A stretch of 64,000 nucleotides of DNA, taken from NCBI RefSeq assembly GCF_056712565.1, contig NZ_CM160072.1, one strand, 5' to 3'. Positions 40,565 through 64,000 of the stretch are shown one piece after another. The number at the start of each line of letters is the position of its first letter. Within the stretch, counting starts at the first letter, position 1. The notes beneath the pieces are model-generated. The model searched no databases. It was not told the DNA's origin and was given only the letters and a program-made list of their open reading frames with translations. Both the position numbers and the translations under genes were made by a program.

Positions 40565-40571
40565 TTACGAT

Positions 40572-41303: not shown

Positions 41304-41354
41304 CTTCTCATCATGGGGCTCATATTACACATTTAACAATTTTCAGGATAAACC

Positions 41355-43463: not shown

Positions 43464-43473
43464 AGATATCCTT

Positions 43474-47253: not shown

Positions 47254-47397
47254 TTAATTTCGATTATTTTTCCCGGATGGAAAATTCTTAGAAACCGATC
47301 ACATACAGCTGCATTTATTAAGGTTATCATCCGTTTCGCTGAAAAACATAACCCATAAAATGCTAGCTGTACCAGGAACCACCTCCTTAGCCTGTGT

Positions 47398-47424
47398 AAT
47401 CTCCCTTACGCAGGCTTATTTTTT
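47398..47424. mobile_element. Probable P2-type att core at the prophage/host junction
   Basis: Reverse complement aaaaaataagcctgcgtaagggagatt matches the P2 att core as I recall it at 25 of 27 positions; lies between yegQ and ogr. Confidence 0.4.
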
Positions 47425-47487
47425 ACGCGTAACACAATGAAATAAAAGGATTTATTTCTGGTCACGTCCACACATTGACCACATCGA

Positions 47488-47520
47488 CAAAAAAGCCCCT
47501 CGACTGAGGGGCTTCCTGTT
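47488..47520 (-). terminator. Intrinsic terminator downstream of ogr
   Basis: Hairpin gcccctc-gact-gaggggc with a T-run on the minus strand (aaaaaa on plus at 47488..47494). Confidence 0.5.
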
Positions 47521-47525
47521 TGTAA

Positions 47526-47744
47526 TTACATCCACATAATTTGCTGCCCTGACGGCAACGGGTGCGGTCTTACGGCGTGGACTTCTCCCGGCTTCACGAT
47601 GTATCGCTGTACCGACTCATAAGTGATGAATGTGGCGCTGCAATTCACGTTCTGACACTGGTGATAACGCTCTTTTGTCGTGTCAGTGATATAGCGGCTT
47701 GTACGCGCATGTGCGGCATGCTGGCATAAAGGACAATGAAACAT
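47526..47744 (-). CDS. ogr: P2 Ogr-like zinc-finger late transcription activator
   Basis: ORF 47526..47807; start set at MFHCPLCQHAAHARTSRYITDTTKERYHQCQNVNCSATF (~72 aa, Cys4 motif). Confidence 0.85.
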   Translation of the reverse strand: MFHCPLCQHAAHARTSRYITDTTKERYHQCQNVNCSATFITYESVQRYIVKPGEVHAVRPHPLPSGQQIMWM

Positions 47745-47825
47745 CGCGAGCACCTCTTCCGGTTTTGTTGATGGTGCTATTTTAGTTAATTTATCCTTAT
47801 AAAACAAATAGATAAAATAAAAACA

Positions 47826-48989
47826 TCACTCATCATCTTCTGTTTCGTACTCCACATCAGAAAGCCTGACCTCAAGCTCCAAGGACGTCGTGAAGCCGCT
47901 ATTATTCAGAAAATGTGTCACCTTAGTGATTGTCCAGTCCTGCTCGTCTATGACGCGCTTAAAGCCTGACACTTTAACCGGTGTTTCCGTGTAAATATCT
48001 GCCCGACCGGTAGCCAGGCTGATGGAGAACTCCGCAACGCCCCGTTGCAGCTTATCCCACTTCGCCTGAGCGGCGCGCATGGCCTGCGCTTTCGTGGCAT
48101 ATACCGCGGTCAGGGCAAAAACATTGTCAGCCTCACCTGCCATGTATTCACCTTCGCGCGCTTCCGGTACTTTTGGCGCTTTCTTCTGCGTGACTGGTTT
48201 CGCTTTCGGGTGCTCCAGTGCGCGCAGGTGTTTCTCTTTCTTTTTGCGTTTCAGTTTTACCTTCTGCTTTTGTGGCTTCGGGTCTTTGGTGTGTAACCAC
48301 TTTGCCGTTACGCCGGTATAGGCTCCACGGTCAGCAATCGCAAAATGATGGCGGTCGCCGTCGCTGCGGGTGATGGTAATCTGCGGGATTTTTTTACCGC
48401 TGGCCGTCACCCCCTGCCCCGCCTTGAGAAACAACAGTTTTCCCATTTTTACCGACACCTCACCGCCGTTGCGTTCAGCAAGGCGGGTCAGGAATTTTGC
48501 ATCAGACTCCTGCGACTGGTCGATGTGCGGGATTTTAATTCCGGCCAGTGACGGAGCGACACTGGCTTCCAGCCTGTTACGGGAGGCTATCGCTTCAACA
48601 ATCGCACCGAGCGTGGTGTCATGCCAGGAGCCTTCACGGCGGGAATTGAGCGTCCCGCGAAAATCTGCACTCCGGGCGCGGATGGTGACCACATCCGGTG
48701 CGCCCCGGTGTTCAACCTCATCAACGGTAAATTTCCCTTTGCATACCAGGGCAAAACCTTTCCAGCCGATATACACCGTCAGGACAGCGCCACGAACCGG
48801 CAGCCCGACCTGCCCGTCGGCATCGTTCAGTTCAATATCAAGCTGGTCAGCCTCAAAGCCCCGGTTATCCGTCAGGGTCATGCTCATCAGACGGTCGCTG
48901 ATATTGCCGGTAATATCCCTGTTGTCGAGCATCAGCATGTAATCCGGCGTCAGCGTACTGCCTGCATCAAATGTCAGTGCATCCAGCAT
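47826..48989 (-). CDS. D: P2 gpD-like late control / tail protein
   Basis: 387-aa ORF MLDALTFDAGSTLTPDYMLMLDNRDITGNISDRL. Confidence 0.9.
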   Translation of the reverse strand: MLDALTFDAGSTLTPDYMLMLDNRDITGNISDRLMSMTLTDNRGFEADQLDIELNDADGQVGLPVRGAVLTVYIGWKGFALVCKGKFTVDEVEHRGAPDVVTIRARSADFRGTLNSRREGSWHDTTLGAIVEAIASRNRLEASVAPSLAGIKIPHIDQSQESDAKFLTRLAERNGGEVSVKMGKLLFLKAGQGVTASGKKIPQITITRSDGDRHHFAIADRGAYTGVTAKWLHTKDPKPQKQKVKLKRKKKEKHLRALEHPKAKPVTQKKAPKVPEAREGEYMAGEADNVFALTAVYATKAQAMRAAQAKWDKLQRGVAEFSISLATGRADIYTETPVKVSGFKRVIDEQDWTITKVTHFLNNSGFTTSLELEVRLSDVEYETEDDE

Positions 48990-49468
48990 TATCCCGCCCC
49001 CGTCATATCCGTGAATTTAGTCGCCATACTGCCAGCCTTACCGATGAGCGATTCTGCCTGTTTACCGATATCGCCATAAAGCGCGGCCAGTGATTCATCA
49101 ACGCGGGTGAGCGACAGCGTAAAATCAATTTTCCGGGGTGTGCCGTCTGCAAAGAAAATACTCCCTGTTTCACTCACCCTGCTGATGACATACATGCCGT
49201 AAATCATGCCGGTGCCATCCAGCAACGGCCACGCCCGGCCTTCCTCAGCCATCAGCCTGAGCGTGGTCATCGTCAGCTTGCCGCCGGTCAGTTCGGGATA
49301 AAGCACACCGGCAAGCGTGATATTTTCCTCGCCAACACCGAGAAACTGAAAGGCATCCCGTTTGCCGATACGGGAATTTGACGCCCAGCGATAATCTGAT
49401 TCACGCTGCATGGTCTGGTGTGGCAGCGTCTGGCGCATAAAAACAAACATACCTAACGCGAGCATCAT
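48989..49468 (-). CDS. U: P2 gpU-like tail protein
   Basis: 159-aa ORF MMLALGMFVFMRQTLPHQTMQRESDYRWASNSRIGKRDAFQF. Confidence 0.9.
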   Translation of the reverse strand: MMLALGMFVFMRQTLPHQTMQRESDYRWASNSRIGKRDAFQFLGVGEENITLAGVLYPELTGGKLTMTTLRLMAEEGRAWPLLDGTGMIYGMYVISRVSETGSIFFADGTPRKIDFTLSLTRVDESLAALYGDIGKQAESLIGKAGSMATKFTDMTGAG

Positions 49469-49482
49469 TTTTCGTCACCTCC

Positions 49483-51930
49483 TTAACCGTCATGCATCAT
49501 GCTGGCACGGGCGCGCGCACGTTTATCCCGCTCGTATTTTTCGAGCGCATCCTGTAACTGGCGGTCAAGCTGTGTCCCCGGCGCAGTACCACCCGTCAGG
49601 CTGATGTGATATTCGTTTTTACTCTGGTCCACATAAGAGCGGCCAGCCGGTGCCGTGACCGGCTGATAAGCCTGATAGCCTGCATAAGAGCTGGTCGCCG
49701 GAATATAACCACCGGTGCCATACGTGGCGGCATGAGTTCTGGCGGCGGTCTGGTCAAGTGTGTCTGACTCTTTGTTGATAACACCGAGTTTTTCCAGTAC
49801 CCAGTCAATACCGCTGCGCAGTTTGTTGAACGCATTAAGCGGCAGCATCAGCGCGTCAGCCAGTGCCTGCCCGAACATGACGCCCGTGTCACGGCAACGG
49901 TTCAGGGTGTCCCGGGTGGCTTTAACCGGAGCAATCAGGTTTGTAAACCACTGCCACGCGGCCTGTAACTTTTCGCCCAGCCAGTCAAACACCGGCTTAA
50001 GTGGCGTGAACAGCTCCCCCACCGGCGCAAATGCCGCTTTCAGCCCTTCAACCACACCGCCAAAGAATGCGCTGACAGGCTCCCAGTATTTACGGATAAG
50101 CAACGCCCCGGCGACAATGGCAGCCACCACGGCCACAACCGGCCAGCTAATCGCCCCGATGGCCGTCATAACAGCACTGCCAACCGTCGTGAAGATTGCC
50201 CCCATTGCGCCTGCTGCCGCGATAATAGCATTGATGCCGGTGATAACCGGCCAGGCTACGAGGCCAATGGCACCAATGATGCCAGTCAGCGCCAGTGCAC
50301 CACCGGCAATTAGGCCAATGGTTAACGCCAGTGATTTGTTTTTCTGGATCCAGCCGTCGAGTTTTAACACATACTTTGTGGCCGTCTGCGTGAGCTTACG
50401 CAGTGCGCCTTCCTGCTGGTCAAACAGGTCAGTCCCCACCGCCTCATAAGCGGACTGAAACTCCTTAAAGTCACCGCCGAGGTTGTCCTGCATGATATTT
50501 ACCAGTTCTGCGGTCTTTCCGTCTGAGGCTTTAAACGCAGCGGTCAGTTTGTCCAGCTTTCCGGTTGAGGCGGCAGTCATCAGCACGGCGGCGGCTGAAC
50601 TGGCCTCCTCCCCGAAAATGGTTTTCATGTATTCAGCCTGCTGGGCAGTACCGAGCCGGTTTTTCTCAAAACTGGCCTGCATTTCTTTCAGAATGGTAAA
50701 TACTGGTCGGGTGTTTCCCTTACTGTCTGAGGTTTTCACACCAAGCTCTTTGAGTGCATCCCATGCTTTTCCCGTCGGTGCCTGCAGGCGGCTTAACACG
50801 GCACGGCTTCCCGTTCCCGCCATTGAACCGGTAATTTTTGCATCATGCAGCGCCCCGACCATTGCGGCTGTTTCTTCAATGCTGACACCGGCATTTTTTG
50901 CCACAGGTGCGGCATAGGTCAGCGCATCGCTCATACCGTCAAAATCGGCGGCGGTTTTGTTCATCGTCATGGAGAGAACATCCCCGATATGAGCGACCTT
51001 ATCGTTTGAAAGCTGAAAGGCGGATTTCATCCCCATCAGCAGGGCGGCGTTTTCTTCCATCGTGCGGCGGTTCGCCAGCGCCATATTCAGCGTGACCGGC
51101 GTTGCCGCCTGAATGGCATCAACATCCCCACCGGCTTTCGCAATGATAATCTGCGCACCGGCAGCATCATCCGCCGAGGCGGCTGTGTTGTCGCCGAGCT
51201 GGCGCGCCTGTTTGCGTAGCGCGGCCATTTCGGCAGAATCTTTTGCCACACCGAGCACGGCCTGTAATTCTGAGTTTTTCTGCGCAAACTCATAACCGGG
51301 CATCAGCAGCTTAACACCGGCCATCGTTCCCGCCGCCGCAATCCCCACACCGGCAGCGCCCACTGAGGCCATATTTCCGGCCAGTTCCTTTCCGGCCTGA
51401 TAACGCTGTTTGACTGCGTTAAGTTTTGCCTGTTGCGCACTGACACGCGCCAGCGCGTCACGCTGCCGGTTAAGCTGGGCGGTGGTTTCACTGATACGGT
51501 TTTTCAGTCCCTGCTCATCATGTGCAAGATTGCGGGTATTAATTCCCACAGCGGCCAGTTCCCGCTGCTGGCGTTTAACGGAATCTGTCAGGCGGTTATA
51601 TTTCGCCTGTAAGTCCTCCGCCGCACGCTTTGCGGATTCCAGCACTTTCGCCTGAGCACGGGTCGGGCGTTCGGTGTTTTTAAACTGTGTGGCAAGGGCT
51701 TCGGCCTGCTGCCGTGCCTTTTCAAGTGCATGACCAGTCACGGCGAGCTGTGCACTGGTCTTGCGGAATCCCTCAATACGGGATGCGTGACCGTTCAGCT
51801 CGCGCAGTGATTTTTGTGTTTCCCGGATATCCCCCGACAGCAACTTACTCGCTGTGCGGATGGATTTAAACGGGCGGGACGCCTGGTCAACAGCCCTGAG
51901 CAATACCTGTAATTTTACATTGTTACTCAT
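49483..51930 (-). CDS. T: P2 gpT-like tail tape measure protein
   Basis: 815-aa ORF, coiled-coil N-terminal half, Gly/Ala-rich hydrophobic segment. Confidence 0.9.
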   Translation of the reverse strand: MSNNVKLQVLLRAVDQASRPFKSIRTASKLLSGDIRETQKSLRELNGHASRIEGFRKTSAQLAVTGHALEKARQQAEALATQFKNTERPTRAQAKVLESAKRAAEDLQAKYNRLTDSVKRQQRELAAVGINTRNLAHDEQGLKNRISETTAQLNRQRDALARVSAQQAKLNAVKQRYQAGKELAGNMASVGAAGVGIAAAGTMAGVKLLMPGYEFAQKNSELQAVLGVAKDSAEMAALRKQARQLGDNTAASADDAAGAQIIIAKAGGDVDAIQAATPVTLNMALANRRTMEENAALLMGMKSAFQLSNDKVAHIGDVLSMTMNKTAADFDGMSDALTYAAPVAKNAGVSIEETAAMVGALHDAKITGSMAGTGSRAVLSRLQAPTGKAWDALKELGVKTSDSKGNTRPVFTILKEMQASFEKNRLGTAQQAEYMKTIFGEEASSAAAVLMTAASTGKLDKLTAAFKASDGKTAELVNIMQDNLGGDFKEFQSAYEAVGTDLFDQQEGALRKLTQTATKYVLKLDGWIQKNKSLALTIGLIAGGALALTGIIGAIGLVAWPVITGINAIIAAAGAMGAIFTTVGSAVMTAIGAISWPVVAVVAAIVAGALLIRKYWEPVSAFFGGVVEGLKAAFAPVGELFTPLKPVFDWLGEKLQAAWQWFTNLIAPVKATRDTLNRCRDTGVMFGQALADALMLPLNAFNKLRSGIDWVLEKLGVINKESDTLDQTAARTHAATYGTGGYIPATSSYAGYQAYQPVTAPAGRSYVDQSKNEYHISLTGGTAPGTQLDRQLQDALEKYERDKRARARASMMHDG

Positions 51931-52350
51931 TCGTGTTTCCGCTTCGCCTGAGCGCCTTTTCGCGCCATGTGATGAGTTCGGTCAGGCTCATGGGATACAG
52001 TTCTGATGGCGGCCAGTGAAATATCACTGCCACATCCGCCATCAGGTCATCGACCGACAGATTTTTCGGAAGCGTCACTGCACCGAGTTCGGCGACAAAA
52101 AACCGACCACCTTACCGGCCAGCGCCACAAGGTCAGGCAGTTCCAGCGCGGCGACTTCCTGCTCGGTCAGCATCGGTGCCGTCATGCGCGGCAGCACCTT
52201 AATCAGTGCATCGACTTCGGAGTTCGCGACCGCAGCCAGACTGACACCGCGCAGCGTCCCGGCATTAGGTTTCATCAGCGTGACCTGTTCGATAACCTGC
52301 TCACCACGCTTGACCGGATTGTCCAGGGTAATCACATTTTCTTTGTTCAT
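51923..52350 (-). CDS. E': P2 gpE+E' fusion made by programmed -1 frameshift at TTTTTTG (52102..52096)
   Basis: The -1 frame stays open for 58 codons past the slippery site (VAELGAVTLPKNL...SGNTNE) and stops at a TAA overlapping the T start (ATGAGTAA). Confidence 0.6.
52075..52350 (-). CDS. E: P2 gpE-like tail assembly chaperone
   Basis: 91-aa ORF MNKENVITLDNPVKRGEQVIEQV; ends just after a TTTTTTG slippery run. Confidence 0.85.
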   Translation of the reverse strand: MNKENVITLDNPVKRGEQVIEQVTLMKPNAGTLRGVSLAAVANSEVDALIKVLPRMTAPMLTEQEVAALELPDLVALAGKVVGFLSPNSVQ

Positions 52351-52406
52351 GGTTTTCTCACTTCTGAATCGGGGTTAACCGGTCAGCCAGGCTGACCGGA
52401 TGAAAA

Positions 52407-52925
52407 TCACAGGCCGATATTGCGGCGGTGTTGCTCCAGCCGGTCGACGCCGTTCACCTTCTCAATCATGTTGATGGTGTCGATTTCGACCAGCTCCTTA
52501 CCGTCCATCGTCAGCCGGAAATAGGTGCAGACCACGGAGATTTTCGACTCGGTGTCTTCTCCCTGTTTGCCCTCGCCGGTGTCGATTTCTTTCTGACGTC
52601 CACGCATGACCACCTCGACGGCCACCGTTTCGCCGGTATCGTCGCGCTGGTAAGAGCCTGCAAAACGAATCGGTACGGAATCCACACCGGTTGCGGCGTA
52701 AAGCTCCCAGATAACCGAATCCGGGAAGCCACCGAGCGACCACTCCATTGACAGCGCATCGTCATCAAGGCCGAGGTCTACCGGTGCGCTGCCGTTCATC
52801 CCCGCACCGCGATAGTTTTCGAGCTTACGGGTCAGTTTTGGTAGCGTGACGGACTTCGCGACGCCCTGATAGCTGTAGCCGTTCAGAAAGACGTTCATTA
52901 ACTTGAGTTTGCGCGGCATTGCCAT
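52407..52925 (-). CDS. FII: P2 gpFII-like tail tube protein
   Basis: 172-aa ORF MAMPRKLKLMNVFLNGYSYQGVAKSV. Confidence 0.9.
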   Translation of the reverse strand: MAMPRKLKLMNVFLNGYSYQGVAKSVTLPKLTRKLENYRGAGMNGSAPVDLGLDDDALSMEWSLGGFPDSVIWELYAATGVDSVPIRFAGSYQRDDTGETVAVEVVMRGRQKEIDTGEGKQGEDTESKISVVCTYFRLTMDGKELVEIDTINMIEKVNGVDRLEQHRRNIGL

Positions 52926-54130: not shown

Positions 54131-54220
54131 CCGTTTAACTCCGTGGTTAATGGGTACAACTATTTTCTGTTGTGCAGAGCATAAGACGCTATTTGACCTG
54201 GCTGGTCAGTGGATGAAACA

Positions 54221-54253
54221 ACAGATAAAGAAAAGGCGGGCAATTCGCCCGCC
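54221..54253 (-). terminator. Intrinsic terminator on the minus strand, upstream of the FI promoter region
   Basis: Hairpin ggcgggc-aatt-cgcccgcc with a T-rich tract on the minus strand (ttttctttatctg). Confidence 0.55.
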
Positions 54254-54316
54254 TGTCCTGATTTGTACTCACTCATTTTCCGCCTGACAATTTACATAGC
54301 CCAAATGCTATCAAAC

Positions 54317-54334
54317 CTGACAGTCTGCTTTGAG
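54317..54334 (+). repeat. Copy 1 of ~16-bp motif CTGACAGTCTGSTYTG (ctgacagtctgctttgag)
   Basis: Shares a 13-mer with copy 3 and an 11-mer with copy 2. Confidence 0.7.
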
Positions 54335-54460
54335 CGAAAAGTGGACATTAGAGTTACAAAAGCAAGTTTAAATCATCCAAAATATTACAATGTCCTTATC
54401 TATCTGATATCGTTATGATAAAAAGCTCCTGAATATAATCGATAGTAGGTGGTTATTTCC

Positions 54461-54838
54461 ATGAAATCAATTTTAGAGGTCTTTACTCAAGGAAATACTA
54501 AAGAAAAACTGGCTGTTATCGCCGATCTCACAACCATTGCGGGAATATCGATTGCAACTATTATTGCTGGTTTGTTAACCCTAGTTGCAAAAACAGATAA
54601 ACTAGATGTTGGAAATCTGTTTGGAGTTGTCATAATATCTCTGCTCGGATTGGCTGGTGTTTGCTGTTTTGTGGCCTTATTTATTTGGGTTATAACCCAA
54701 ATGTCTAAACCATGGGGAACACCTCGGGGGGTTCAGCCCTTAGTTAAGTGTGCTATTTCCCTTATCTTTATCTGTATGTTTTTGCTGGCTGTCTTTACAT
54801 TTTATGAGTTTATTTCTTCGATGAGCATACGCTATTGA
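54461..54838 (+). CDS. Small three-TM-helix membrane protein of unknown function (prophage cargo)
   Basis: ORF 54449..54838; ATG at 54461 (MKSILEVFTQGN); three hydrophobic helices; AT-rich; convergent with the recombinase gene. Confidence 0.5.
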   Translation: MKSILEVFTQGNTKEKLAVIADLTTIAGISIATIIAGLLTLVAKTDKLDVGNLFGVVIISLLGLAGVCCFVALFIWVITQMSKPWGTPRGVQPLVKCAISLIFICMFLLAVFTFYEFISSMSIRY

Positions 54839-54860
54839 ATATAAAATCAGCCCCCATAAC

Positions 54861-55547
54861 TTAAAAGAGACCTTCTATATCGACTTCAATGCCCAAATAA
54901 CGGACTGTGCTTTCCAGTTTCTTATGGCCCAACAGAAGTTGGATCACCCGGAGACTCTTGGTTTTCTTGTAGATTAAGTAAGGTTTTGTTCTTCTCATGG
55001 AATGTGTGCTGTACAGCGAATCTTCGAGACCAAGCTTTTCTACCCACCCATGAAAAATTCGGTTGTATTGCCGGGTTGATATATGGTGGTTAGTTCCGAC
55101 CCGAGAGCGGAACAGGAAGCCTTTACTATGCCAGTTGCCGAGCTTTATCAATGCAGTAACCGCTTCCCTTGTCCCTTTGGTTATCTCAAATTGGACAGGG
55201 CTGCCGGTTTTCTGTTGCAACACCGTTGCTCTGCTTGAGACAGAACTGCCATATGCAGCATCTGATACTTTGAGTTTGACCAAATCACAGCCCCGTAGCT
55301 TAGTGTCCAAAGCCATGTTGAACAGAGCTAGATCGCGTGTTTTACCTTCCAACTCAAGTCTAATCCGGATCCCCCAGATATGAAATATCTGAAGTGGCCT
55401 TTTTTGACCGATGGTACGGTCTTTATTCCACGGTGACGTTTTCATATTCAAATCTCCTGCAATGTGGGAGATTTGAGTATGGTTGTCTCTCAAGAGCGAA
55501 AATAAGTCAACTATCACTAGTTGTTGCGCATGTACGTATTCTGTCAA
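54861..55547 (-). CDS. Short tyrosine-type site-specific recombinase (catalytic domain with only ~50-aa N-terminal extension)
   Basis: 228-aa ORF with the tyrosine-recombinase motif series: R in DTKLRGCDL, HSMRRT (H-x-x-R), LLGH, Y in TVRYLG; starts 4 nt after the stop of the upstream 280-aa gene. Confidence 0.6.
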   Translation of the reverse strand: MTEYVHAQQLVIVDLFSLLRDNHTQISHIAGDLNMKTSPWNKDRTIGQKRPLQIFHIWGIRIRLELEGKTRDLALFNMALDTKLRGCDLVKLKVSDAAYGSSVSSRATVLQQKTGSPVQFEITKGTREAVTALIKLGNWHSKGFLFRSRVGTNHHISTRQYNRIFHGWVEKLGLEDSLYSTHSMRRTKPYLIYKKTKSLRVIQLLLGHKKLESTVRYLGIEVDIEGLF

Positions 55548-56291
55548 TTAATTATTGACAATCATCAATTCTGGAATGATCAAAATCATCATATCGAATT
55601 ATAGTCTGGTTGACTGTATCTATTGTTGGTGTCATTTCTGTTATAATATCCTGATAACCTAAAGAGTTAAATACATTTACTAAGGCCTCACACCGAAGGG
55701 CCGTAGCAATTACAAAATTATAAATTGCCAGCCGTTTATTTTCTTGTTTAACTGCAAGAATGAATTCGATAGCAGTATTTTCATCACTTTGGATTGCATT
55801 ATATAGAGATACTATATTTACCATATCATCAGAGAATGTATGTATTGAATCACAAAGGGGAACGTAATGGGCATGATAGTGTGTTTCCCAGCCAATTAAT
55901 TCAAAAAGTCTTCTGGTTCCTGGATATTCAGGTGTATTTGGCCACAATCTATTAAATAGATCAGTTAGTTCTTTTCCCATGCGAATCCTTTCATTTGCTG
56001 CTGGATTAGTCATTCCTTTGGATTTTAAACACTCCAGCCACCGTTTTCCATTACTATGAACTAATTTCTTACTAGCCTTGAGTAATGCTTGTGCATTTTC
56101 GCCATCATCTATTGCTATATAAAATTGATTGGCAGCCTGTTCTATTATAACCCTAGCTAATACTTCCGATGCTGAAAAGGCTCCTATATTCAAAGAAGAG
56201 ATAGCCTGATTACTAAGTTCATTCAGTACATTAAAGTACTGTAAGACCATCAATTTTTGTTCCACACCCTTTAGGTTGTCTGGATTTGCCC

Positions 56292-57197
56292 CTATATTTC
56301 CAGACACCTGTTATCACTTAACCCATTACTGGCTTGCTGCCGTAGATATTCCCGTGGCGAGCGATAACCCAGTGCACTATGCGGATGCCATTCGTTATAA
56401 TGCTCGAACGCCTCTGCAAGGTTCTTTGCTGCCGTTAACCCGTCTGGTTTGGGCATGACACTGATGTAGTCACGCTTTATCGTTTTCACGAAGCTCTCTG
56501 CTATGCCGTTACTCTCCGGACTCCGCACCGCCGTGCTCTTCGGTTCAAGCCCCAACATCCGGGCAAACTGCCGTGTTTCATTAGCCCGGTAGCATGAACC
56601 ATTATCCGTCAGCCACTCTACTGGAGACGCCGGAAGCTCGTTGCCGAAGCGGCGTTCCACCGCTCCCAGCATGACGTCCTGTACTGTTTCACTGTTGAAG
56701 CCGCCCGTAGTGACCGCCCAGTGCAGTGCCTCACGGTCACAGCAGTCCAGCGCGAACGTGACTCGCAGTTTTTCTCCGTTATCACAGCGGAACTCGAACC
56801 CGTCAGAGCACCATCGCTGATTACTTTCTTTCACAGCCACTCTGCCTGTATGTGCCCGTTTCGATGGCGGTACAGCAGGTTTTCGCTCAAGCAACAGCGC
56901 ATTCTGGCGCATGATCCGGTAAACACGTTTGGCATTGATCGCAGGCATACCATCAAGTTCTGCCTGTCTGCGAAGCAGCGCCCATACCCGACGATAACCA
57001 TACGTGGGCAGCTCTCCGATAACATGGTGTATACGGAGAAGCACATCCGTATCATCAGTGTGACGACTGCGGCGGCCATCCATCCAGTCATCGGTTCGTC
57101 TGAGAATGACGTGCAACTGCGCACGCGACACCCGGAGACAACGGCTGACTAAGCTTACTCCCCATCCCCGGGCAATAAGGGCGCGTGCGCTATCCAC
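56292..57197 (-). CDS. insD: IS2 transposase OrfB (InsD, DDE catalytic domain)
   Basis: 301-aa [41 protein letters not shown]. Confidence 0.9.
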
Positions 57198-57520
57198 TTT
57201 TTTGCCCGTCCATATTCAACGGCTTCTTTGAGGAGTTCATTTTCCATCGTTTTCTTGCCGAGCAGGCGCTGGAGTTCTTTAATCTGCTTCATGGCGGCAG
57301 CAAGTTCAGAGGCAGGAACAACCTGTTCTCCGGCGGCGACAGCAGTAAGACTTCCTTCCTGGTATTGCTTACGCCAGAGAAATAACTGGCTGGCTGCTAC
57401 ACCATGTTGCCGGGCAACGAGGGAGACCGTCATCCCTGGTTCAAAGCTCTGCTGAACAATTGCGATCTTTTCCTGTGTGGTACGCCGTCTGCGTTTCTCC
57501 GGTCCTAAGACATCAATCAT
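57155..57520 (-). CDS. insC: IS2 OrfA (InsC, HTH); fused to OrfB by -1 frameshift in the 57155..57197 overlap
   Basis: ORF 57155..57565; start set at [26 protein letters not shown]. Confidence 0.85.
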
Positions 57521-57768
57521 CTGCTCTCCAATGACTAGTCTAAAAACTAGTATTAAGACTATCACTTAAATAAGTGATATTGGTTGTCTGGAGATTCAGG
57601 GGGCCAGTCTATTGTCTATTTTATTTTTATGCTCCTCAAATTTTGCATGGATATATTTATTTATCGCGGCTATTTTTTTTACATCTTCGTCAAGATCAAA
57701 CGGGCAACGTCCAAACAATTCTTTTTTCATATATTTCTCCTGTTGTACAAGCTTCCATAAGTTGGCAG

Positions 57769-57774
57769 ATTATA
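57769..57774 (-). promoter_or_regulatory. Candidate sigma70 -10 hexamer (TATAAT) ~40 nt upstream of the 280-aa gene start
   Basis: Plus-strand attata at 57769..57774; no clear -35 identified. Confidence 0.3.
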
Positions 57775-57962
57775 CACTGAAGATTACCTATAAATAGCTG
57801 TGCGGGATAGCAGATCAGTGCAAGAAGTACAACCAAGTGAACTGTGCGTATTCAGATACCTGGCCTAACGTTCGCGATAGCCGTCCCCTGCACGAAGCCA
57901 TATATTAGATGTATTAGCTCAGACCTTATCTGACAGGTTGAGTAGGTAGAATCTAATCAAAG

Positions 57963-57980
57963 CTGACAGTCTGGTTTGGA
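57963..57980 (+). repeat. Copy 2 of the motif (ctgacagtctggtttgga), same orientation as copy 1
   Basis: Direct repeat of copy 1; together they bracket the whole cargo module. Confidence 0.7.
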
Positions 57981-58080
57981 CTGTGAGTTCAACCGATGGA
58001 TGCAACACACAGCGATCTACGGACATTACTAGCATAGCTGTGTATTAATCATCGGGAAGCAGGTCAGTCCGCTCCTAGCA

Positions 58081-58096
58081 CAGAGCAGACTGTCAG
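58081..58096 (-). repeat. Copy 3 of the motif, inverted (minus strand reads ctgacagtctgctctg)
   Basis: Inverted relative to copies 1 and 2; 102 bp from copy 2; sits in the loop of a 10-bp perfect stem (58076..58085 with 58108..58117). Confidence 0.7.
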
Positions 58097-58151
58097 ATTA
58101 GGCTTTACTCTGTGCTATAGATACGTTAGCTCACTCCAGAGATCATACAAC

Positions 58152-58679
58152 TTATTGCGGCATTTCCGGCCATTCAGGATTTGCAGGATCCACACGGCTG
58201 ACCAGAACACTGTAGCGTTCCCATGCTTCCAGTCGGCTACGCTCCTCATCTGTTGCCATATTCAGTCTGACAGAGCGTTCCAGTGGCTGAATGATAGTTT
58301 CAGCTTCGGAAAGCAAAGCTGACTTCTGTAATTCCGCCAGTTGCAGCTGTTCGTCTGCCGTATAAATCCGCTTAATCACGGCACCATCCTTAAACATCCA
58401 TTTACCTGAGTCATCAGCACGTCGGTTGGCGGTAATATCAGGAACCTCGACAACGCTAAAACCTTCAGGGTTGAGCGTTGAAGCATCTCTGGTGATGCCG
58501 ACAATTATATTATTCTCATCGTAAACAATCTTTATCGTGTCTTCCTGAAAATTACTTACTTCCTCATACCAGTTTTTTCCCTCTTCGGACCATAACCAGA
58601 TAACATCAAAATTTTTTGTCAGTTGATATTGGGCAACAGTTTTTGGATTACCCGCAGTAATATTTTTTAAATGCTGCAT
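58152..58679 (-). CDS. G: P2 gpG-like tail fibre assembly protein
   Basis: 175-aa ORF immediately downstream of the tail fibre gene. Confidence 0.85.
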
Positions 58680-58682
58680 AAA

Positions 58683-61412
58683 TTACACCTGTGCGACGTT
58701 ATACCATGTGCCATTGATGTATTTTTGTATTGGTCTGAATACTGCGGGGTCATCACCATCGACTTCACCGACAATACCAAGCCCGGTAATTACGTGCCCT
58801 GCTTTCTCATACATCACCCCTTTCTGCATGGTCTGGACAACACGTGTGCCAAGTCTGACATCTCTCACATAGCGGGAATCAAAGTTACCGTAATCCGAGG
58901 GATTAACACGCCCCGTAATATTTATGGTTTTATTACTTTGAACGCTTCCGGAGACAAAGCGCATAACATGGACGCTATTAGCATAAACATCCAGATTACC
59001 ATCACCATTTTGTTTAAAGCCCGTGTCATTATCACCCAAAACAATCGAATTACCGCCAAGAGCACTGGATGTTCCTATACCCAGAGCACCATTCAATTGA
59101 CCACCAGATAACGGCAGTGCACCGACATCTCCCGCTGTAGGTTTTCGCGTTGTGGTATAAAACTCAGACCAGTCAGCCTCGAATCCGTAACCGTCACGAG
59201 CAGAACGATAAAAAATACCACCGTTCTTATAATTAACGCGAAACTGGGCGGCGGGACAACTTCCTTCCCCGATATTAAAATGAAGAATTAACGTTGATGC
59301 CCCACCAATAGTTGCGTTATAGGCTCCGCTACTCCAGTTCCATCCAACGGCTTTATCATTCGCAACGGTGTCTCCTGTTTTTCCTGAAGCAAATGCACCA
59401 ATATTTTTCGGCGTCAGGTTAATATCTGATGTTCCATCAAACGAAACGTTATTAATTTTACGGGCTGTTTTCAGCTTTGTTGCTGTCGCCGCATTGCCGG
59501 ACAGTTCACCAGAAAGGCCAGCACTGAATGTCTGTTTCGCGCCCCATGTCTGGGCTTCGTCGATAATTGGCACACGTCTTGTCGTGATCGTGCGGCTTCC
59601 CGGATTTCCTGAAATACGCACCATAAAAAAGCGGTAGTTGGCTTTACTTACAGTGCTGCGCCATACATGCATTGAGCGTCCCGAACCAGAATCATCACTC
59701 GGACCGACTGAGATGTTTATCAGGTTGCCATCAATGACGCCCCAGTCCATACCGTCGGGAATATTGGTCATGTTATCCAGCCGAACGGTTATCAGACTGC
59801 CCGGCACAAAATCGTATGTCTGCCAGTCCAGGCTGGTGAGTTTTGCCACTGCGCCACCGATACCCAACTCTAACGGCAAAGAGTTTGAGTTATAAATCTG
59901 TCGCCACTCCCCCCACGCGTTAAATGAGCCACCAAGAAACACTCGCTCATATAAACGGTCTTTTGTAGCTGCGCTGGTTCCTGTGGTCGTGTAACGTTGC
60001 AAAACATAGACACCATCCTTGCGCCTGATGACTTCCAGAAAACCAGACTGCCCCTGGATTGGGGTGTGGGTCGCTTTGCCTGTCACACTGTAAATACCTG
60101 GAGACATCAAATCATCCAGGTCATCCTCATAGAAGGTACTACTGGTCTGATAACCAATTTGGATCCAGTCTTCCCACTGTGGATTTTCTGCATCCCATTT
60201 GGCTGTCAGGCCGCGAATATACATAGTCCCGTTACGGGTTGTATAACGCTGTGTGCGTCCATATAGCCCACCTTCGAAAATTTCCAGAATGCCCTGCGCG
60301 TCTCCTCCCTGCTCGGGGTAATGTCGTTCAAAAGAAGCTATTGCTGAACTGCTGTTTCTCCATAGACCTAAATGTTCTGCGCCACCGAGAGAGTTAAGGT
60401 CAATGGTCGTACTTAGAGCTCGCGTTACAGCCTGAACATGGCGCCATGCTCCCCATGGTCCATCATTACCATTCCATGTTCCAATGAGTTTGCGGATATA
60501 CAAATTTCCGTCACGTGTGGTATAGCGTTGCGTGCCTGCAAAATTGCCGCCAGTAAAAACCTCAAGCACACCGACAGCATTATCTTCAGGGAAGTTTTTC
60601 TCCAGTGTTGCGTTGGTGGACGTTGCTTTAGACCAGATACCTGAATAAGCCTTAACAGAACCAAACGTATTCAGATCAGCATCAACCGGCATTTCGCCAT
60701 TGTTTTTCATAAACGTCAGGCTGGTAACGCCAACATTGTCCAGAAAAGCTGATTTATCCTGGATATCTGCACCATTCTGATTTTTCGCCAGACGTGAATT
60801 TGCGTTGTCATTTGCTGCCTTGACCGCTTTTGGCGTTGCTGCCAATGACTCACTGGTGCTGTTTGTTGCACTGCTTAACTGAGTAAAACCTTTTTCTGTC
60901 AGCGTGGCGTCAGGATGGCGGCGGGACTGCTCATGCTCTGCGATTTTGTCATCGACGTAATCCTGCGTCGCCATCACTGTGCTGGCATCAATACTCAGCT
61001 CAACGGACGCCACGTTACTGACAATAATAACCATGCGGCAGGTCTGCGCACGCCCGGAGCCTTCAGCCAGTTCTGGCTTATAGCTTTCAGCCATGTTGGA
61101 TACCGCAATCAGTGTTCCGGCATCGTCATACAGACCAAGCTCACGCATCCAGAAGCCGCCCACTTCGGGCGGTACAACCAGTTCAGCCACGATATAGTTT
61201 TTATTCTTGTTATCCACGCTGACTTTATTCAGAGCGTGACGCCAGACCTCATGCACCAGTTTCGTCTGACCGGCATCCGGCACCGGCAATTTGCCATTAC
61301 CGTCACCCACGGCCATTGCAGACAGGGTTACTTTTTTCCCGCCGGGGACAGTGGCGGCTGCCAGCTTTGCGGCTCCGGCAGTAGTGATAACGGTTTTAAA
61401 TTTCGTGCTCAT
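58683..61412 (-). CDS. H: P2 gpH-like tail fibre protein (long variant, 909 aa)
   Basis: N-terminus MSTKFKTVITTAGAAKLAAATVPGGKKVTLSAMAVGDGNG is P2 H-like; extended Gly/Thr/Ser-rich distal region. Confidence 0.85.
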   Translation of the reverse strand: MSTKFKTVITTAGAAKLAAATVPGGKKVTLSAMAVGDGNGKLPVPDAGQTKLVHEVWRHALNKVSVDNKNKNYIVAELVVPPEVGGFWMRELGLYDDAGTLIAVSNMAESYKPELAEGSGRAQTCRMVIIVSNVASVELSIDASTVMATQDYVDDKIAEHEQSRRHPDATLTEKGFTQLSSATNSTSESLAATPKAVKAANDNANSRLAKNQNGADIQDKSAFLDNVGVTSLTFMKNNGEMPVDADLNTFGSVKAYSGIWSKATSTNATLEKNFPEDNAVGVLEVFTGGNFAGTQRYTTRDGNLYIRKLIGTWNGNDGPWGAWRHVQAVTRALSTTIDLNSLGGAEHLGLWRNSSSAIASFERHYPEQGGDAQGILEIFEGGLYGRTQRYTTRNGTMYIRGLTAKWDAENPQWEDWIQIGYQTSSTFYEDDLDDLMSPGIYSVTGKATHTPIQGQSGFLEVIRRKDGVYVLQRYTTTGTSAATKDRLYERVFLGGSFNAWGEWRQIYNSNSLPLELGIGGAVAKLTSLDWQTYDFVPGSLITVRLDNMTNIPDGMDWGVIDGNLINISVGPSDDSGSGRSMHVWRSTVSKANYRFFMVRISGNPGSRTITTRRVPIIDEAQTWGAKQTFSAGLSGELSGNAATATKLKTARKINNVSFDGTSDINLTPKNIGAFASGKTGDTVANDKAVGWNWSSGAYNATIGGASTLILHFNIGEGSCPAAQFRVNYKNGGIFYRSARDGYGFEADWSEFYTTTRKPTAGDVGALPLSGGQLNGALGIGTSSALGGNSIVLGDNDTGFKQNGDGNLDVYANSVHVMRFVSGSVQSNKTINITGRVNPSDYGNFDSRYVRDVRLGTRVVQTMQKGVMYEKAGHVITGLGIVGEVDGDDPAVFRPIQKYINGTWYNVAQV

Positions 61413-61422
61413 TGTTTCTCAC

Positions 61423-61953
61423 TTATCCGGGATAAACAGTAATAACATCACCATCACAGACCACACCGCCTGTATACAGACAGCCGGGAATGTCCTGGAT
61501 AATGTTCAGACCGATAAGGTGGCGACTTGCGGGTTTGGCATCGGCAATAAGCCGTTCCATTTCCAGATACATCTCCTCCGTGATGCCGCTTTCCAGCACA
61601 CCGATATCAAGGCGAAAGGTTCCGGGCGGGTCGTTTGTCTCCCACCATTCCTTTACGTTAATGAGATAGCCGAGCGGCTCCACCACACGCCGGATTGCGC
61701 CTATAGTGCCCTTATGGCAGTGAATGAAATACGCATCGCGGATAACGGCGCGTTTTGTTGCTTCCGGCCACTTTTCATCCCACCTGTCAACAGAAAACGC
61801 CCACGCCAGCCACGGCAGCAGATTTGCCGGACAGGTGTCCGGGTTCCACAGCTCACGAATACTGACCGGCGTTTTTTCAATTTCCGCACAGGCTTTTGCG
61901 GCGGCAACTTCAAGCGGTGATGAGCCGGTCGGCAGCAGGCGCGAATCACTCAT
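61423..61953 (-). CDS. I: P2 gpI-like baseplate protein
   Basis: 176-aa ORF; position between J and H. Confidence 0.88.
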   Translation of the reverse strand: MSDSRLLPTGSSPLEVAAAKACAEIEKTPVSIRELWNPDTCPANLLPWLAWAFSVDRWDEKWPEATKRAVIRDAYFIHCHKGTIGAIRRVVEPLGYLINVKEWWETNDPPGTFRLDIGVLESGITEEMYLEMERLIADAKPASRHLIGLNIIQDIPGCLYTGGVVCDGDVITVYPG

Positions 61954-62854
61954 CAGAGCCTCCGGTCACGACGCGGTATTCGGTACAGAAAGACGCCTGC
62001 GTACTGTTGAGCACGATGTCGGCCAGCGGTGCAGTCAGTTCGACACGCTGCACGCCTTCCACATGCAAAGCGGCATAAATGGCAGACAGACGGATGTCGC
62101 GCCCCAGCCGGTGCTGTGCCGTGATATACGCTTCCAGTTTTTTTACTGCGGCCGCGCGGATGGGTTCGCTTTCGGGACCAGGGTAAAGGTAAAGCGTGGC
62201 GTTTATCTGGTATTCAACGATGGCGGCAGACTGCACGGTCACGCGGTCAGCCACCGGCCTGACATCCTCGCCATTAAGGGCGTTACGTACCACCGCCAGC
62301 AGGTCTTCGGATGCCACACCGTTATTCTCACGTGACAGCACAGAGATGGTGACGCAGGCCGGAGACGGACTGGTGACAGAGATATCCGCGACACGCCCGT
62401 CGGCACTGCGGCCATGATACTGATAGGCACCCACCGACCCGGCGACGCTTAAGCCTTCAAACGCCTGCTGAATACGCAGCCGGTAATCGGTGTCAGACTC
62501 CATCACTGCCGGTGTCGGCGGGATAGTCGAATCATCTGCCGGGGTGATAATCAGGCGCGTGGTGTTGTAATTGGCACCAATCACATCAAGGTCATTACCG
62601 GCAGCACAGGCCAGCATCACCGCCCGTGCGGCCTCATTCACACGCTGACGCCAGATAAGTTCACGATAAGCATTTTCCTCCAGCAGTTTGACGAGAGGCT
62701 CGGATTCCAGCGTCAGGGTACGGGCGACCGCCTCCTGCTGGTCTTCCGGGTAAAGGGAAATCAGTGTCGCCTTGCGTTCGGCAAGAATGGTTTCAAAGTC
62801 CAGCTCCTCGACCACATCCGGTGCGGGTAGCTGGTTCAGGTCGATAATCGGCAT
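61946..62854 (-). CDS. J: P2 gpJ-like baseplate protein
   Basis: 302-aa ORF MPIIDLNQLPAPDVVEELDFETILAERKA. Confidence 0.9.
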   Translation of the reverse strand: MPIIDLNQLPAPDVVEELDFETILAERKATLISLYPEDQQEAVARTLTLESEPLVKLLEENAYRELIWRQRVNEAARAVMLACAAGNDLDVIGANYNTTRLIITPADDSTIPPTPAVMESDTDYRLRIQQAFEGLSVAGSVGAYQYHGRSADGRVADISVTSPSPACVTISVLSRENNGVASEDLLAVVRNALNGEDVRPVADRVTVQSAAIVEYQINATLYLYPGPESEPIRAAAVKKLEAYITAQHRLGRDIRLSAIYAALHVEGVQRVELTAPLADIVLNSTQASFCTEYRVVTGGSDE

Positions 62855-62858
62855 GGTT

Positions 62859-63206
62859 TCAACTCACAGGGATGGTTAACGAAAGTGGCTGGCCGGTGTC
62901 GTTGTGCTGACCGGTTAACGTGACCGTCATTCGCCCGTCAAAACTGCGCTCAGTGGTGACGGATGACAGGGTGACGCGGGGTTCCCATTTCAGCACCGCC
63001 ATGTAACAGGCGACCTTAATCTGCAACTCAAGCGCCGGAGTCTGCGGCTGGTCAATCATTGACGCCAGCAACGAGCCGTAATCACGACGCATCACCCGCG
63101 AGCCGACCGGTGTGCGCAGGATATCGCCGATACTCTGGCTGATATGCTCAAGGTCAGTGACAGTCAGGCCATCACTGCGATTCATTCCGAGATAACGCGC
63201 AGTCAT
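62859..63206 (-). CDS. W: P2 gpW-like baseplate wedge protein
   Basis: 115-aa ORF MTARYLGMNRSDGLTVTDLEHISQSIGDIL. Confidence 0.9.
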   Translation of the reverse strand: MTARYLGMNRSDGLTVTDLEHISQSIGDILRTPVGSRVMRRDYGSLLASMIDQPQTPALELQIKVACYMAVLKWEPRVTLSSVTTERSFDGRMTVTLTGQHNDTGQPLSLTIPVS

Positions 63207-63838
63207 AGAGGTCCTCCGGTTGTGCCGCCGCTGTCGCCGGGGTGTTTATGGGTATGCAGTACCTTACCGTTTGATGAGAGTTCACCGCCGGTGTGTTCAA
63301 TGTTGCCGCGCATCGTCCCGCCCTTCTGCACTTCCAGCGTGCCGGTAATCAGCCTGTTGGTGCAGACCACCTCCGGTGTGTCCAGGGTGACGCGGGTTGA
63401 TGCTTTCACCATGACCACCGGCACCGTGGCAGTAACAGAATCAGAAGCCGTCACGCTGGCCGTTTTAATTCCGCTTGCCGTGAGCGCACTGGTTTCGGGT
63501 TCATACTCAATCACCGCCCCGTCAGGGAAACGGATGTACAGGGCATCCGCCGACGCAGACGGCGCGGGGTTATCACCGGAATAAATCCCCGGCAGAACGA
63601 ACGCCGTGTCGAGTTCACCGCCCACGGCCAGAATCAGCACCTGTTCCCCCTCGGAAGGTGCCCACCACGTGCGCGAACGTCCGGCGCGATGGGTCAGCCA
63701 CTGAAGCCAGTCGGTGCACATGCCGCCGGTCTGCACACGGCAGCGACCGGCGTTAAGGTCGGTTTCGACGATAATGCCGGTGCGGATCATGTTGCGCAGT
63801 GCGCGCGCGAGTTCCTGAATATTTGCGAGAGTGTTCAT
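63203..63838 (-). CDS. V: P2 gpV-like baseplate spike/assembly protein
   Basis: 211-aa ORF MNTLANIQELARALRNMIRTGIIVETDLNAGRCRVQ. Confidence 0.9.
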   Translation of the reverse strand: MNTLANIQELARALRNMIRTGIIVETDLNAGRCRVQTGGMCTDWLQWLTHRAGRSRTWWAPSEGEQVLILAVGGELDTAFVLPGIYSGDNPAPSASADALYIRFPDGAVIEYEPETSALTASGIKTASVTASDSVTATVPVVMVKASTRVTLDTPEVVCTNRLITGTLEVQKGGTMRGNIEHTGGELSSNGKVLHTHKHPGDSGGTTGGPL

Positions 63839-63904
63839 AACGGGAAGGATGCCGTCGGGTCATACCGGCGGCAATGTGACGATGAGGTGTCGGGAATGGC
63901 ACAA

Positions 63905-64000
63905 CTAACGGTCGAGGTGAGCCAGGATAATCTCTTCAATCATCTGCACATCCTCACCGGTAAAGCCGAGCAGAGGACGCGCCGGATAATCAATTTTCTT
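63905..64000 (-). CDS. Partial CDS, 3' end only (31 codons + TAG); possibly the P2 S-like tail completion gene
   Basis: Minus-strand frame open from the window edge (KKIDYPARPLLGFTGEDVQMIEEIILAHLDR stop); identity inferred only from P2 gene order. Confidence 0.35.
   Translation of the reverse strand, partial: KKIDYPARPLLGFTGEDVQMIEEIILAHLDR

Follow-up and report, generated by a model that had tools for sequence, protein, structure and literature searches.

The ogr-proximal region of a P2-like prophage at the 3' end of cyaR in Escherichia coli, and its cargo slot between FI and G

The described systems closest to the region analysed here, positions 47398-64000 of the window (the whole stretch of DNA that was studied, 64,000 nt), are phage P2 (NC_001895), the remnant PR-X of E. 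coli K-12, and the R-type pyocins and other tailocins. The element has in common with P2 the gene order ogr-D-U-T-E'/E-FII-FI ... G-H-I-J-W-V-S, the P arm and the ogr terminator, whereas Z/fun, orf30, orf91 and the tin and old morons of P2 are absent or replaced; it further differs from P2 in a foreign middle part of H, 14 additional residues in FI, a 2-nt change in the core and a pF activator region of the P22H1/P24E6b type. PR-X lies at the same site and in the same orientation, and shares with the element the cyaR 3' end, the core, the P arm and ogr. It is annotated in MG1655 as a cryptic prophage of 629 bp and consists, as an earlier note on this DNA had correctly stated, of just ogrK and yegZ, a 219-bp fragment of D, fused to a truncated core, whereas at least 16.6 kb remain in the window. 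The tailocins share with the element a homologous sheath and a P2-type tail module, but lack the genes for head, packaging, replication and integration, all of which are present in the identical relatives of the element.

Identity and extent of the element

A P2-like prophage at the classic P2 insertion site of E. coli is already known and ordinary. The element is found between yegQ/trhP and yegR, inserted at the 3' end of the sRNA gene cyaR. This site is called locI, and K-12 has only a P2 remnant there. The positions 47398-64000 are very probably one half, the one next to ogr that bears the late tail genes, of a resident P2-like (Peduovirus) prophage that a P2-type integrase had inserted. 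The ORF map and the PFAM domains yielded ogr, D, U, T, E/E', FII, FI, G, H, I, J, W, V and the end of S. All of them lie on the minus strand and follow the order of P2, and from ogr to V they are those that the earlier note had listed (see Table 1). Its list was right in order and content, but skipped the material between FI and G: ~4 kb of low-GC, non-P2 cargo plus an IS2, in the place of Z/fun.

Table 1. Features of the region and its left junction, in positions of the window
Feature	Position	Strand	Basis and remarks
cyaR (CyaR/RyeE sRNA gene)	47338..47424	+	Rfam RF00112
Prophage/host junction core (attR in P2 usage)	47398..47424	.	direct alignment to P2 24356-24382
P arm of att with ogr/F-operon terminator	47425..47515	.	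gap-free alignment to annotated P2 features 24265-24357
IHF site	47423-47456		collinear mapping to P2
Int arm site	47460-47487		collinear mapping to P2
Terminator	47492-47515		collinear mapping to P2
ogr, late-gene activator, 72 aa	47526..47744	-	Pfam Ogr_Delta 1e-21; 100% identical to P2 Ogr (blastp)
D	47826-48989	-	Pfam Phage_GPD
U	48989-49468	-	Pfam Phage_P2_GpU
T	49483-51930	-	Pfam PhageMin_Tail
E'	51923-52078	-	Pfam Phage_TAC_7 (E/E')
E	52075-52350	-	Pfam Phage_TAC_7 (E/E')
FII, tail tube, 172 aa	52407..52925	-	Pfam Phage_tube 4e-60; 99.4% identical to P2
FI, tail sheath, 410 aa	52898..54130	-	98% identical to P2 over 396 aa
pF late promoter region with upstream activator site	54131..54260	-	alignment to annotated P2 pF region
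FI-side slot boundary site, degenerate lox-like	54314..54346	.	inverted repeat I1 arm; outer arm is phage backbone
Cargo ORF, 125 aa, putative membrane protein	54461..54838	+	hydrophobic by inspection of translation
Short tyrosine recombinase, 194 aa, catalytic domain only	54861..55445	-	Pfam Phage_integrase 1e-17
DUF5677 gene, 280 aa when intact	55552..57730	-	Pfam DUF5677 8e-10 on the intact copy in L002
IS2 (IS3 family), 1331 bp	56281..57611	-	imperfect terminal inverted repeats; orfA/orfB Pfam; empty site
Partial third copy of FI-side boundary sequence, inside cargo	57930..57987	.	direct repeat D1, inverted repeat I3
G-side slot boundary site, lox-like	58067..58099	.	GTCCGCTC-N8-GAGCAGAC, 1 mismatch to consensus
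G, tail-fibre assembly protein	58152-58679	-	Pfam Caudo_TAP; 89% identical to P2
H, tail fibre, 909 aa	58683-61412	-	Pfam Phage_tail_fib, Phage_fiber_2, gp37_C
I	61423-61953	-	Pfam Tail_P2_I
J	61946-62854	-	Pfam Baseplate_J
W	62859-63206	-	Pfam GPW_gp25
V	63203-63838	-	Pfam Phage_base_V with Phage_spike
pV promoter region	63839-63904	-	P2's orf30 absent here
S 3' end, C-terminal 30 codons	63905-63997	-	Pfam Phage_tail_S on 30-aa fragment; runs off window

The encoded proteins are full-length orthologs of the P2 tail proteins: 11 of the 13 that were compared by blastp have the length of their P2 counterpart, with 89-100% amino acid identity and without internal stops, and the other two are FI, which is extended, and H, which is a mosaic. 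The identity amounts to 98-99% for D, U, T and E/E' (47826..52350) and to 93-99% for the baseplate genes I, J, W and V (61423..63838). The programmed -1 frameshift that joins E and E' is also recognizable: the T6G slippery site (GGTTTTTTG, 52102-52096) is conserved with P2 and the E' ORF lies in the -1 frame. The pF region includes a terminator hairpin (54254-54234, terminator scan), and Peduovirus records that include P22H1, P24E6b and D8 have the same variant at 95% identity. A complete contractile tail is encoded by the two Ogr-dependent late operons, V-W-J-I-H-G and FI-FII-E-E'-T-U-D. As it has D in full and a further 11 tail genes, the region is no remnant of the K-12 PR-X type and is, in agreement with the earlier note, far more complete. 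In a megablast search 187 phage records were matched, and the Peduovirus genomes among them proved collinear, with 93-96% identity everywhere but in the cargo.

The same element is carried by 30 complete E. coli genomes, including those of MS15052, SF-468, APEC E18055 and ATCC 11775. Positions 42022-64000 of the window differ from MS15052 by 0 mismatches over 20.6 kb, apart from one IS2; the complete RefSeq relatives show 100.0% identity across 93% of the query (the part without the IS2), and have the identical FI variant, cargo, H and att variant. In MS15052 R and the lysis genes come next, followed by X, L, M, N, O, P, Q, cos, A, B, cox, C and int, and the far end of the element is a 27/27 core that adjoins yegR. 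Every essential P2 gene is full length in that prophage, Int (100%), Cox (100%) and C (99%) are identical or nearly so to those of P2, and the cos site is identical. The finding as such carries little weight, as the site is a textbook one and the exact sequence is already annotated in the 30 complete genomes, the species type strain included.

The fragment of S that runs off at position 64000 bears out the expectation that the element continues beyond the window. The remainder (S, R, lysis, head, terminase, cos, replication, cox, C, int and attL) would follow there as in the identical genomes; the window ends inside S, and completeness for this strain is what we infer from the relatives, not what is seen. 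Just tail genes and ogr are visible in the window, K-12 shows that the site can hold deleted remnants and FI is homologous to the sheath of the R-pyocins (PA0622, E = 1e-63), so that one could envisage a tail-only remnant or tailocin-like cluster, from which the head, replication and integration modules were deleted past the window end in this strain. We consider this very improbable: every 0-mismatch relative that was examined has the whole prophage, S keeps its reading frame up to the window edge, the tail genes are without an adjacent tailocin-type regulator or lysis cassette, and the border of the cluster is a genuine att junction and not a deletion scar. The production of tailocin-like particles or mobilisation by a helper, which the earlier note had suggested, is not supported as the best reading, since the identical region of MS15052 belongs to a complete prophage, and is not needed, as the identical genomes carry that prophage at its full 33 kb. 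The simplest reading of the sequence would be that the region is one half of a whole prophage.

The att junction and the cyaR terminator

The core in the window (47398-47424, AATCTCCCTTACGCAGGCTTATTTTTT) matches the P2 attP core (AATCTCCCTTACACGGGCTTATTTTTT) at 25 of 27 positions, the differences being at core positions 13 and 15. This is exactly the count that had been given in the earlier note, and the boundary between phage and host is likewise exact, as BLAST homology to free Peduovirus genomes begins at 47398. The K-12 core, in contrast, is a 27/27 match. From the core through the P arm 133 nt align with the annotated sites of P2 at 93% identity and without gaps, as in a P2-type att, and a terminator-like hairpin was recovered at 47493-47514, within the ogr/F-operon terminator (terminator scan). 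On its int side the identical prophage ends in a 27/27 core, from which the core beside ogr departs at positions 13 and 15, and a single 27/27 core is restored in the empty attB of ST95 relatives (e.g. UTI89).

The core is formed by the last 27 nt of cyaR and therefore the prophage provides the 3' half of the cyaR terminator hairpin, an overlap that is reflected in the K-12 annotation, where cyaR overlaps the cryptic prophage. Integration has swapped these 27 nt for the phage copy of the core and cyaR thereby remains intact: the CyaR/RyeE model RF00112 scores 100.2 bits, versus a gathering score of 47, over its full length (model 1-85, 47336-47421) and without non-canonical pairs, and the fold of the terminator hairpin is unchanged (-15.8 vs -15.5 kcal/mol). 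The junction thus shows an sRNA gene that survives the use of its end as an att site, with its terminator rebuilt from a 2-nt variant. The earlier note had missed this overlap with the cyaR terminator, together with the loss of the FI stop, the mosaic H and the cargo.

FI, H and the condition of the prophage

That the ORFs are full length, as had been claimed, is correct for the tail genes, apart from FI, whose stop codon is lost. A 2-bp insertion (TA) destroys it, so that FI has 410 residues and not 396, and the 14-aa C-terminal extension overlaps the start of FII. The exact 410-aa protein occurs on 706 contigs, and the other full-length members of the cluster among those listed have 396 aa; in IMG/VR the variant junction gave 0 matches and the canonical junction at least 120. 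By these searches, the extension is confined to this lineage. The tail fibre H is a mosaic as compared to that of P2 (669 aa): the identity is 84% in the N-terminal 207 aa and 52% in the C-terminal 142 aa, and the middle is unrelated.

The FI stop-loss and the 2-nt difference between the attL and attR cores are possible handicaps to phage production by this copy, and together with the cargo of the A-Q (tin/old) slot, which is a pseudogene in the relative, they may be early signs of decay in place. The prophage could accordingly be complete in gene content but functionally crippled, heading to domestication and inherited only vertically, although we regard this as rather doubtful. The longer sheath, or an altered translational coupling of FI and FII, would block tail assembly; alternatively, the heterology between the end cores would lower excision. 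The absence of the variant FI junction from IMG/VR fits with such a loss, and so does the alignment of the homologous pyocin sheath nearly up to its final residue (3-382 of 386), the terminal arms of that sheath forming an inter-subunit mesh. The element is moreover clonal, with 0 mismatches, in a B2/ST95-type lineage. However, a C-terminal extension of FI may be tolerated, and P2 Int also accepts secondary sites in which many core positions are mismatched; no other essential gene is damaged, the identity being 89-100% and frameshifts absent, which argues for recent activity or selection. The two changes single out a lineage that is suited to testing whether phage function has been lost. Mitomycin C induction, which the earlier note had proposed to look for tail-like particles, is poorly suited, because the relative carries a P2-type C repressor and P2-type C immunity is not SOS-inducible.

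The cargo slot between FI and G

The slot between G and FI holds non-essential, low-GC cargo instead of Z/fun. For the 125-aa ORF no family match was found, and the exact protein is present on at least 1000 contigs. The 194-aa recombinase appears on inspection of the sequence to possess the catalytic motif residues (R, H-x-x-R, H and Y) and is 93% identical to a 200-aa protein (P0033); the family search returned just weak matches to Xer and FimB/E-type invertases, far under the cut-offs, and no named family. The DUF5677 gene, without a match in PADLOC or NCBIfam, is interrupted by the IS2 after about codon 38 and is unbroken in MS15052. The IS2 is flanked by 5-bp target duplications (TTGTC, 56276-56280 and 57612-57616) and was found in this gene in none of 5,426 complete E. 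coli genomes. The insertion is recent, knocks out one cargo gene and provides a strain-specific marker.

The FI-side boundary site is common to P2 and phage 899, and its consensus was built from 25 cargo classes; the sequence recurs inside the cargo as a direct repeat (D1, 71% over 49 nt). The G-side site, for which the consensus came from 27 cargo classes, is the best match in the 64-kb window, with just two 3-mismatch matches elsewhere, where about 0.3 matches at ≤ 3 mismatches are expected by chance, and a 40-nt match links it to the border of segments that bear the recombinase in contexts other than P2. A perfect 12+8+12 site is found in L038 (4432-4463), 25 lox-like sites lie near close relatives of the recombinase (about 0.2 expected by chance), and breakpoints of identity between unrelated contexts coincide with the site spacers.

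These patterns lead us to propose, tentatively, that the G-FI (Z/fun) slot of the P2-like phages of E. coli might be a natural site of recombinase-mediated cassette exchange, and not of loose homologous recombination. The slot would be bounded by two inverted lox-like sites, with inverted arms of 8-12 bp around an 8-bp spacer that differs between the G and FI sides, on which the ~200-aa, catalytic-domain-only tyrosine recombinase would act; it would have to do so in trans, as it is absent from most slots. The recombinase cassette would travel among P2-like prophages, lambdoid prophages, plasmids and chromosomal islands, and the lineage of the window would be one of the rare P2-like prophages that itself bears it.

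By slot length, about 29 types of cargo are bounded by lox-like sites in 59 of 61 P2-like contigs. According to a 2026 preprint the recombination processes at the P2 and P4 defence hotspots await elucidation (10.64898/2026.02.27.708500); the G-FI slot may be one of these. The slot is the part of the element that could matter more, provided that the lox-like borders and the travelling recombinase form a working exchange system: this would offer an explicit mechanism by which cargo, in many cases anti-phage genes, is rapidly swapped at the slot, and would account for the exchange of accessory and defence genes in P2-like phages and their sharing with unrelated mobile elements.

Among the known systems, Cre/loxP, FLP/FRT and the integron cassettes differ from the slot in their recombinase, as that of the slot has ~200 aa, consists of the catalytic domain only and scores above the cut-off in no named family. 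The slot sites are double-strand palindromes, unlike the folded attC sites of the integrons. All these systems have in common with the slot a tyrosine recombinase and unrelated gene cassettes that are delimited by sites, and in Cre/loxP and FLP/FRT, as in the slot (GACAGTCCGCTC-TGTGCCAG-GAGCGGACTGTC), these sites consist of inverted arms around an 8-bp spacer.

Gene content and extent of the prophage

The minus strand of the window contains, in the order known from P2, the genes ogr, D, U, T, E', E, FII, FI, G, H, I, J, W, V and the end of S (ORF map and Pfam), with about 4 kb of foreign DNA between FI and G. The earlier note had given these genes as far as V, and their order, from the sequence and had expected the element to continue past the window end. 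The ORF map, Pfam and the comparison with the P2 proteins agree with it, and S indeed runs off at 64000 with only its last 30 codons inside. When compared with P2 (NC_001895), none of the compared proteins contained an internal stop, 11 of the 13 had exactly the P2 length at 89-100% identity, and the T6G slippery site for E+E' was intact. H encodes 909 aa versus 669 aa in P2; its N-terminus resembles that of the P2 protein (84%), its middle is foreign and its C-terminus is distantly related (52%). The P2 gene orf30, which lies between S and V, is absent from the window. Phage records matched by megablast numbered 187, and the best-matching Peduovirus genomes were 93-96% identical everywhere but in the foreign stretch.

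Window 42022-64000 showed 0 mismatches to E. coli MS15052 (L002) apart from one insertion. The sequence of MS15052 continues with S, R, lysC/B/A, K, Y, X, L, M, N, O, P, Q, cos, A, an orf80-83 block, B, cox, C and int, followed by a core that adjoins yegR, and all essential P2 genes in its prophage are full length (89-100% identity). We are therefore highly confident, judging from the sequence comparison, that the window represents half of a prophage that is a near twin of P2; the doubt that remains relates to the window ending in S. The earlier note had identified the element correctly and had rightly called it far more complete than the remnant in K-12, which retains only ogrK and a 219-bp fragment of D. 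Its leaning towards a tail-only remnant or a tailocin was not borne out, because the relatives with 0 mismatches carry the whole prophage, and this reading was rejected as the best one. The element is present in 30 complete E. coli genomes; it is not new, and public genomes already carry its annotation. Immunity of the P2 C type is not SOS-inducible.

The FI protein has 410 and not 396 residues: a TA insertion changes the stop TAA to TAT AAG and adds 14 residues, and the extended gene overlaps the ribosome-binding site and start of FII. The exact 410-aa protein occurs on 706 contigs, the other listed full-length members of the cluster having 396 aa, and the variant junction had no match in IMG/VR, where the canonical junction was found at least 120 times. 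The stop-loss is confined to this prophage lineage. FI can be aligned with the homologous sheath of R-pyocins almost to the last residue of the latter, and since the terminal arms of the R-pyocin sheath build the sheath mesh, the 14-residue extension could affect function.

Features of the prophage and its surroundings (window positions unless a locus handle is given; L002, MS15052; L003, L004 and L008, other compared loci; L110-L190, P2-like loci compared at the G-FI slot)
Feature	Position	Details
DNA before the prophage	40000-47253	GC only 43%
Genes for PcfJ-domain, DUF1266 and DUF4034 proteins	43474-45404 and upstream	directly upstream of yegQ/trhP; PGAP names from identical MS15052 sequence; baeR-yegP at this place in K-12
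cyaR (Rfam RF00112)	47336-47421	100 bits, threshold 47
att core	47398-47424	AATCTCCCTTACGCAGGCTTATTTTTT
P2-order genes ogr to S	47526-64000	minus strand
FI extension	52898-52939	14 residues
G-FI slot	54131-58151	38.8% GC; backbone 52-55%
Slot boundary repeat	54314-54346 and 58067-58099	imperfect inverted repeat
Further copies of the two sites	L003 15300-15345 / 17440-17475; L110 407-440 / 1285-1318; L111-L190
Cargo ORF		125 aa; hydrophobic, no family match
Cargo tyrosine recombinase	54861-55445	194 aa
Cargo DUF5677 gene		split after about codon 38 by IS2
ORF beginning in IS2 end	55552-56307	N-terminally truncated DUF5677 product could still be made
IS2	56281-57611	1331 bp, complete; TTGTC target duplications
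Partial third FI-side boundary copy	57930-57987	within cargo; 71% over 49 nt; 84 nt from G-side site
A-Q slot of MS15052 (tin and old in P2)	L002 30232-32448	beyond window end; AAA-family ATPase gene, annotated pseudogene, internal stop
P-arm-like DNA, yegR side of core, outside the window	L002 38642-38700; L004 4826-4880; L008 426-480	CTGGTCAC...CATTGACCACATCGA

The att core and the sRNA gene cyaR

Homology to free phages starts exactly at the first nucleotide of the core (BLAST). Direct same-strand alignment with the attP core annotated in P2, AATCTCCCTTACACGGGCTTATTTTTT, confirmed the match at 25 out of 27 positions that the earlier note had given, the differences being at core positions 13 and 15, and the 100 nt after the core map without gaps onto the IHF site, the Int arm site and the ogr terminator as annotated in P2. 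What had been overlooked is that the sRNA gene cyaR ends in a terminator hairpin whose 3' half is this core; the annotated cyaR of K-12 overlaps the cryptic prophage PR-X. The two core substitutions shift one G-U wobble pair within the stem and the 11-bp hairpin is kept (-15.8 vs -15.5 kcal/mol); the prophage thus rebuilds cyaR.

The P2-type core was recovered at 27 of 27 positions at the int-side end of the identical prophage in MS15052, at the unoccupied site in UTI89 and other closely related ST95 strains, and in the attP of all three free Peduovirus genomes examined. The variant core is the usual sequence at 28 P2-like junctions in IMG/VR (L010-L037), most of which have a cyaR 5' stem half, GCCTGCGT, that is fully complementary to the variant core and is not of the E. 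coli type. Most likely, the incoming phage brought the variant core along after residence in a host with a cyaR of that other type, which would place the strand exchange to the left of core position 13. Inheritance from the local attB is made less likely by the 27/27 empty sites in the ST95 relatives; a variant ancestral attB, or a later mutation, could also have been the source. Two central positions of the core now distinguish one end of the prophage from the other, and this difference might lower excision.

The IMG/VR junctions also showed that P2-like prophages use the 3' end of cyaR in hosts with the stem GCCTGCGT/ACGCAGGC, and one contig (L027/L028) had the variant core at both ends. The bacterial DNA immediately to the right of the core resembles the P arm of P2, in strains with an empty site as well, and has the look of a relic left when an earlier P2-like element integrated here.

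Cargo, boundary sites and recombinase of the G-FI slot

The low-GC DNA in the slot replaces Z/fun of P2 and encodes three proteins. PADLOC had no match to a known defence system for any of them and NCBIfam had none for the DUF5677 protein or the small hydrophobic ORF, the latter probably encoding a membrane protein. A DUF5677 ORF tried in Enterococcus was not among the ORFs reported protective (one preprint). None of the complete E. coli genomes compared (5,426) has IS2 at this position, and its insertion is recent and strain-specific; it leaves the pF and pV regions untouched, and both match sequenced Peduovirus genomes. In a further P2-like locus from IMG/VR (L147, 2740892103_000005) the G-side lox-like site has an IS2 end (TAGACTGGCCCCCTGAATCTCCAGA) directly next to its spacer, and the slot has therefore been struck by IS2 more than once.

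The inverted repeat that bounds the slot is common to P2 itself, phage 899 and P24E6b. On the G side this repeat forms a lox-like site, GTCCGCTC-N8-GAGCGGAC, and the spacers differ between the sides: TGTGCCAG in the 32-bp G-side site (TGTGCCAR across loci) and CTCGCTCA on the FI side. Among 61 P2-like loci of IMG/VR in which the slot is complete, 59 carry cargo there. Grouped by slot length, this cargo falls into about 29 unrelated classes, flanked by a complete site on the G side and another on the FI side, and conservation in these P2-like loci falls from ~0.83 to ~0.3 immediately past the inner arms. The two remaining slots were empty and had no site. The 'empty' interval measures 128-143 nt in some P2-like contigs (L012, L013, L183, L184). 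Two of these intervals, in L012 and L013, were read completely; both contain a hairpin resembling a terminator as well as a pF-like region, and neither has a lox-like site.

The cargo recombinase is a tyrosine recombinase of the catalytic-domain-only type (~200 aa). It shares 93% identity with a protein of 200 aa that is encoded in chromosomal islands, in one lambdoid prophage and in plasmid-like surroundings. There, a perfect 12+8+12 site is located at the edge of the common segment, with more copies between genes, and the identity between unrelated contexts ends at the site spacers. Around genes for closely related recombinases the sites are enriched ~100-fold (25 vs ~0.2 in shuffles). Of 5,426 complete genomes of E. 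coli, 1,292 contain the recombinase or, at a minimum, its site; none of the isolated phages in INPHARED has the recombinase at high identity. It could not be assigned to a named family (only weak matches to Xer and FimB/E-type invertases, far below the cut-offs) and had no sequence match among solved structures.

Taken as sequence evidence, the pattern fits recombinase-mediated cassette exchange at the slot, and the partial third boundary copy may be a scar of an earlier cassette event. Alternatively, the palindromic boundary repeats may work through RNA, as a hairpin or terminator. Exchange by Xer was ruled against, because P2 and the MS15052 prophage contain no dif-like site at ≤8 mismatches. 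A literature text search for the site sequence gave no match; the title of a 2004 article by Nilsson, Karlsson and Haggard-Ljungquist (Mol Biol Evol 21:1) may weigh against the sites being undescribed. That the cassette-exchange lead is both real and undescribed seems rather doubtful to us. The recombination processes at the P2 and P4 defence hotspots are described, in a 2026 preprint (10.64898/2026.02.27.708500), as still to be worked out.

Comparison with P2 and tRNA-gene-integrating phages

P2 and the MS15052 prophage share a 100% identical Int and Cox, a 99% identical C and an identical 19-nt cos end. The only P2 genes that are missing or replaced in the latter are the morons orf30, fun(Z), orf91, tin and old. 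Phages that integrate in tRNA genes rebuild their target on integration, and the prophage in the window does likewise with the sRNA gene cyaR.
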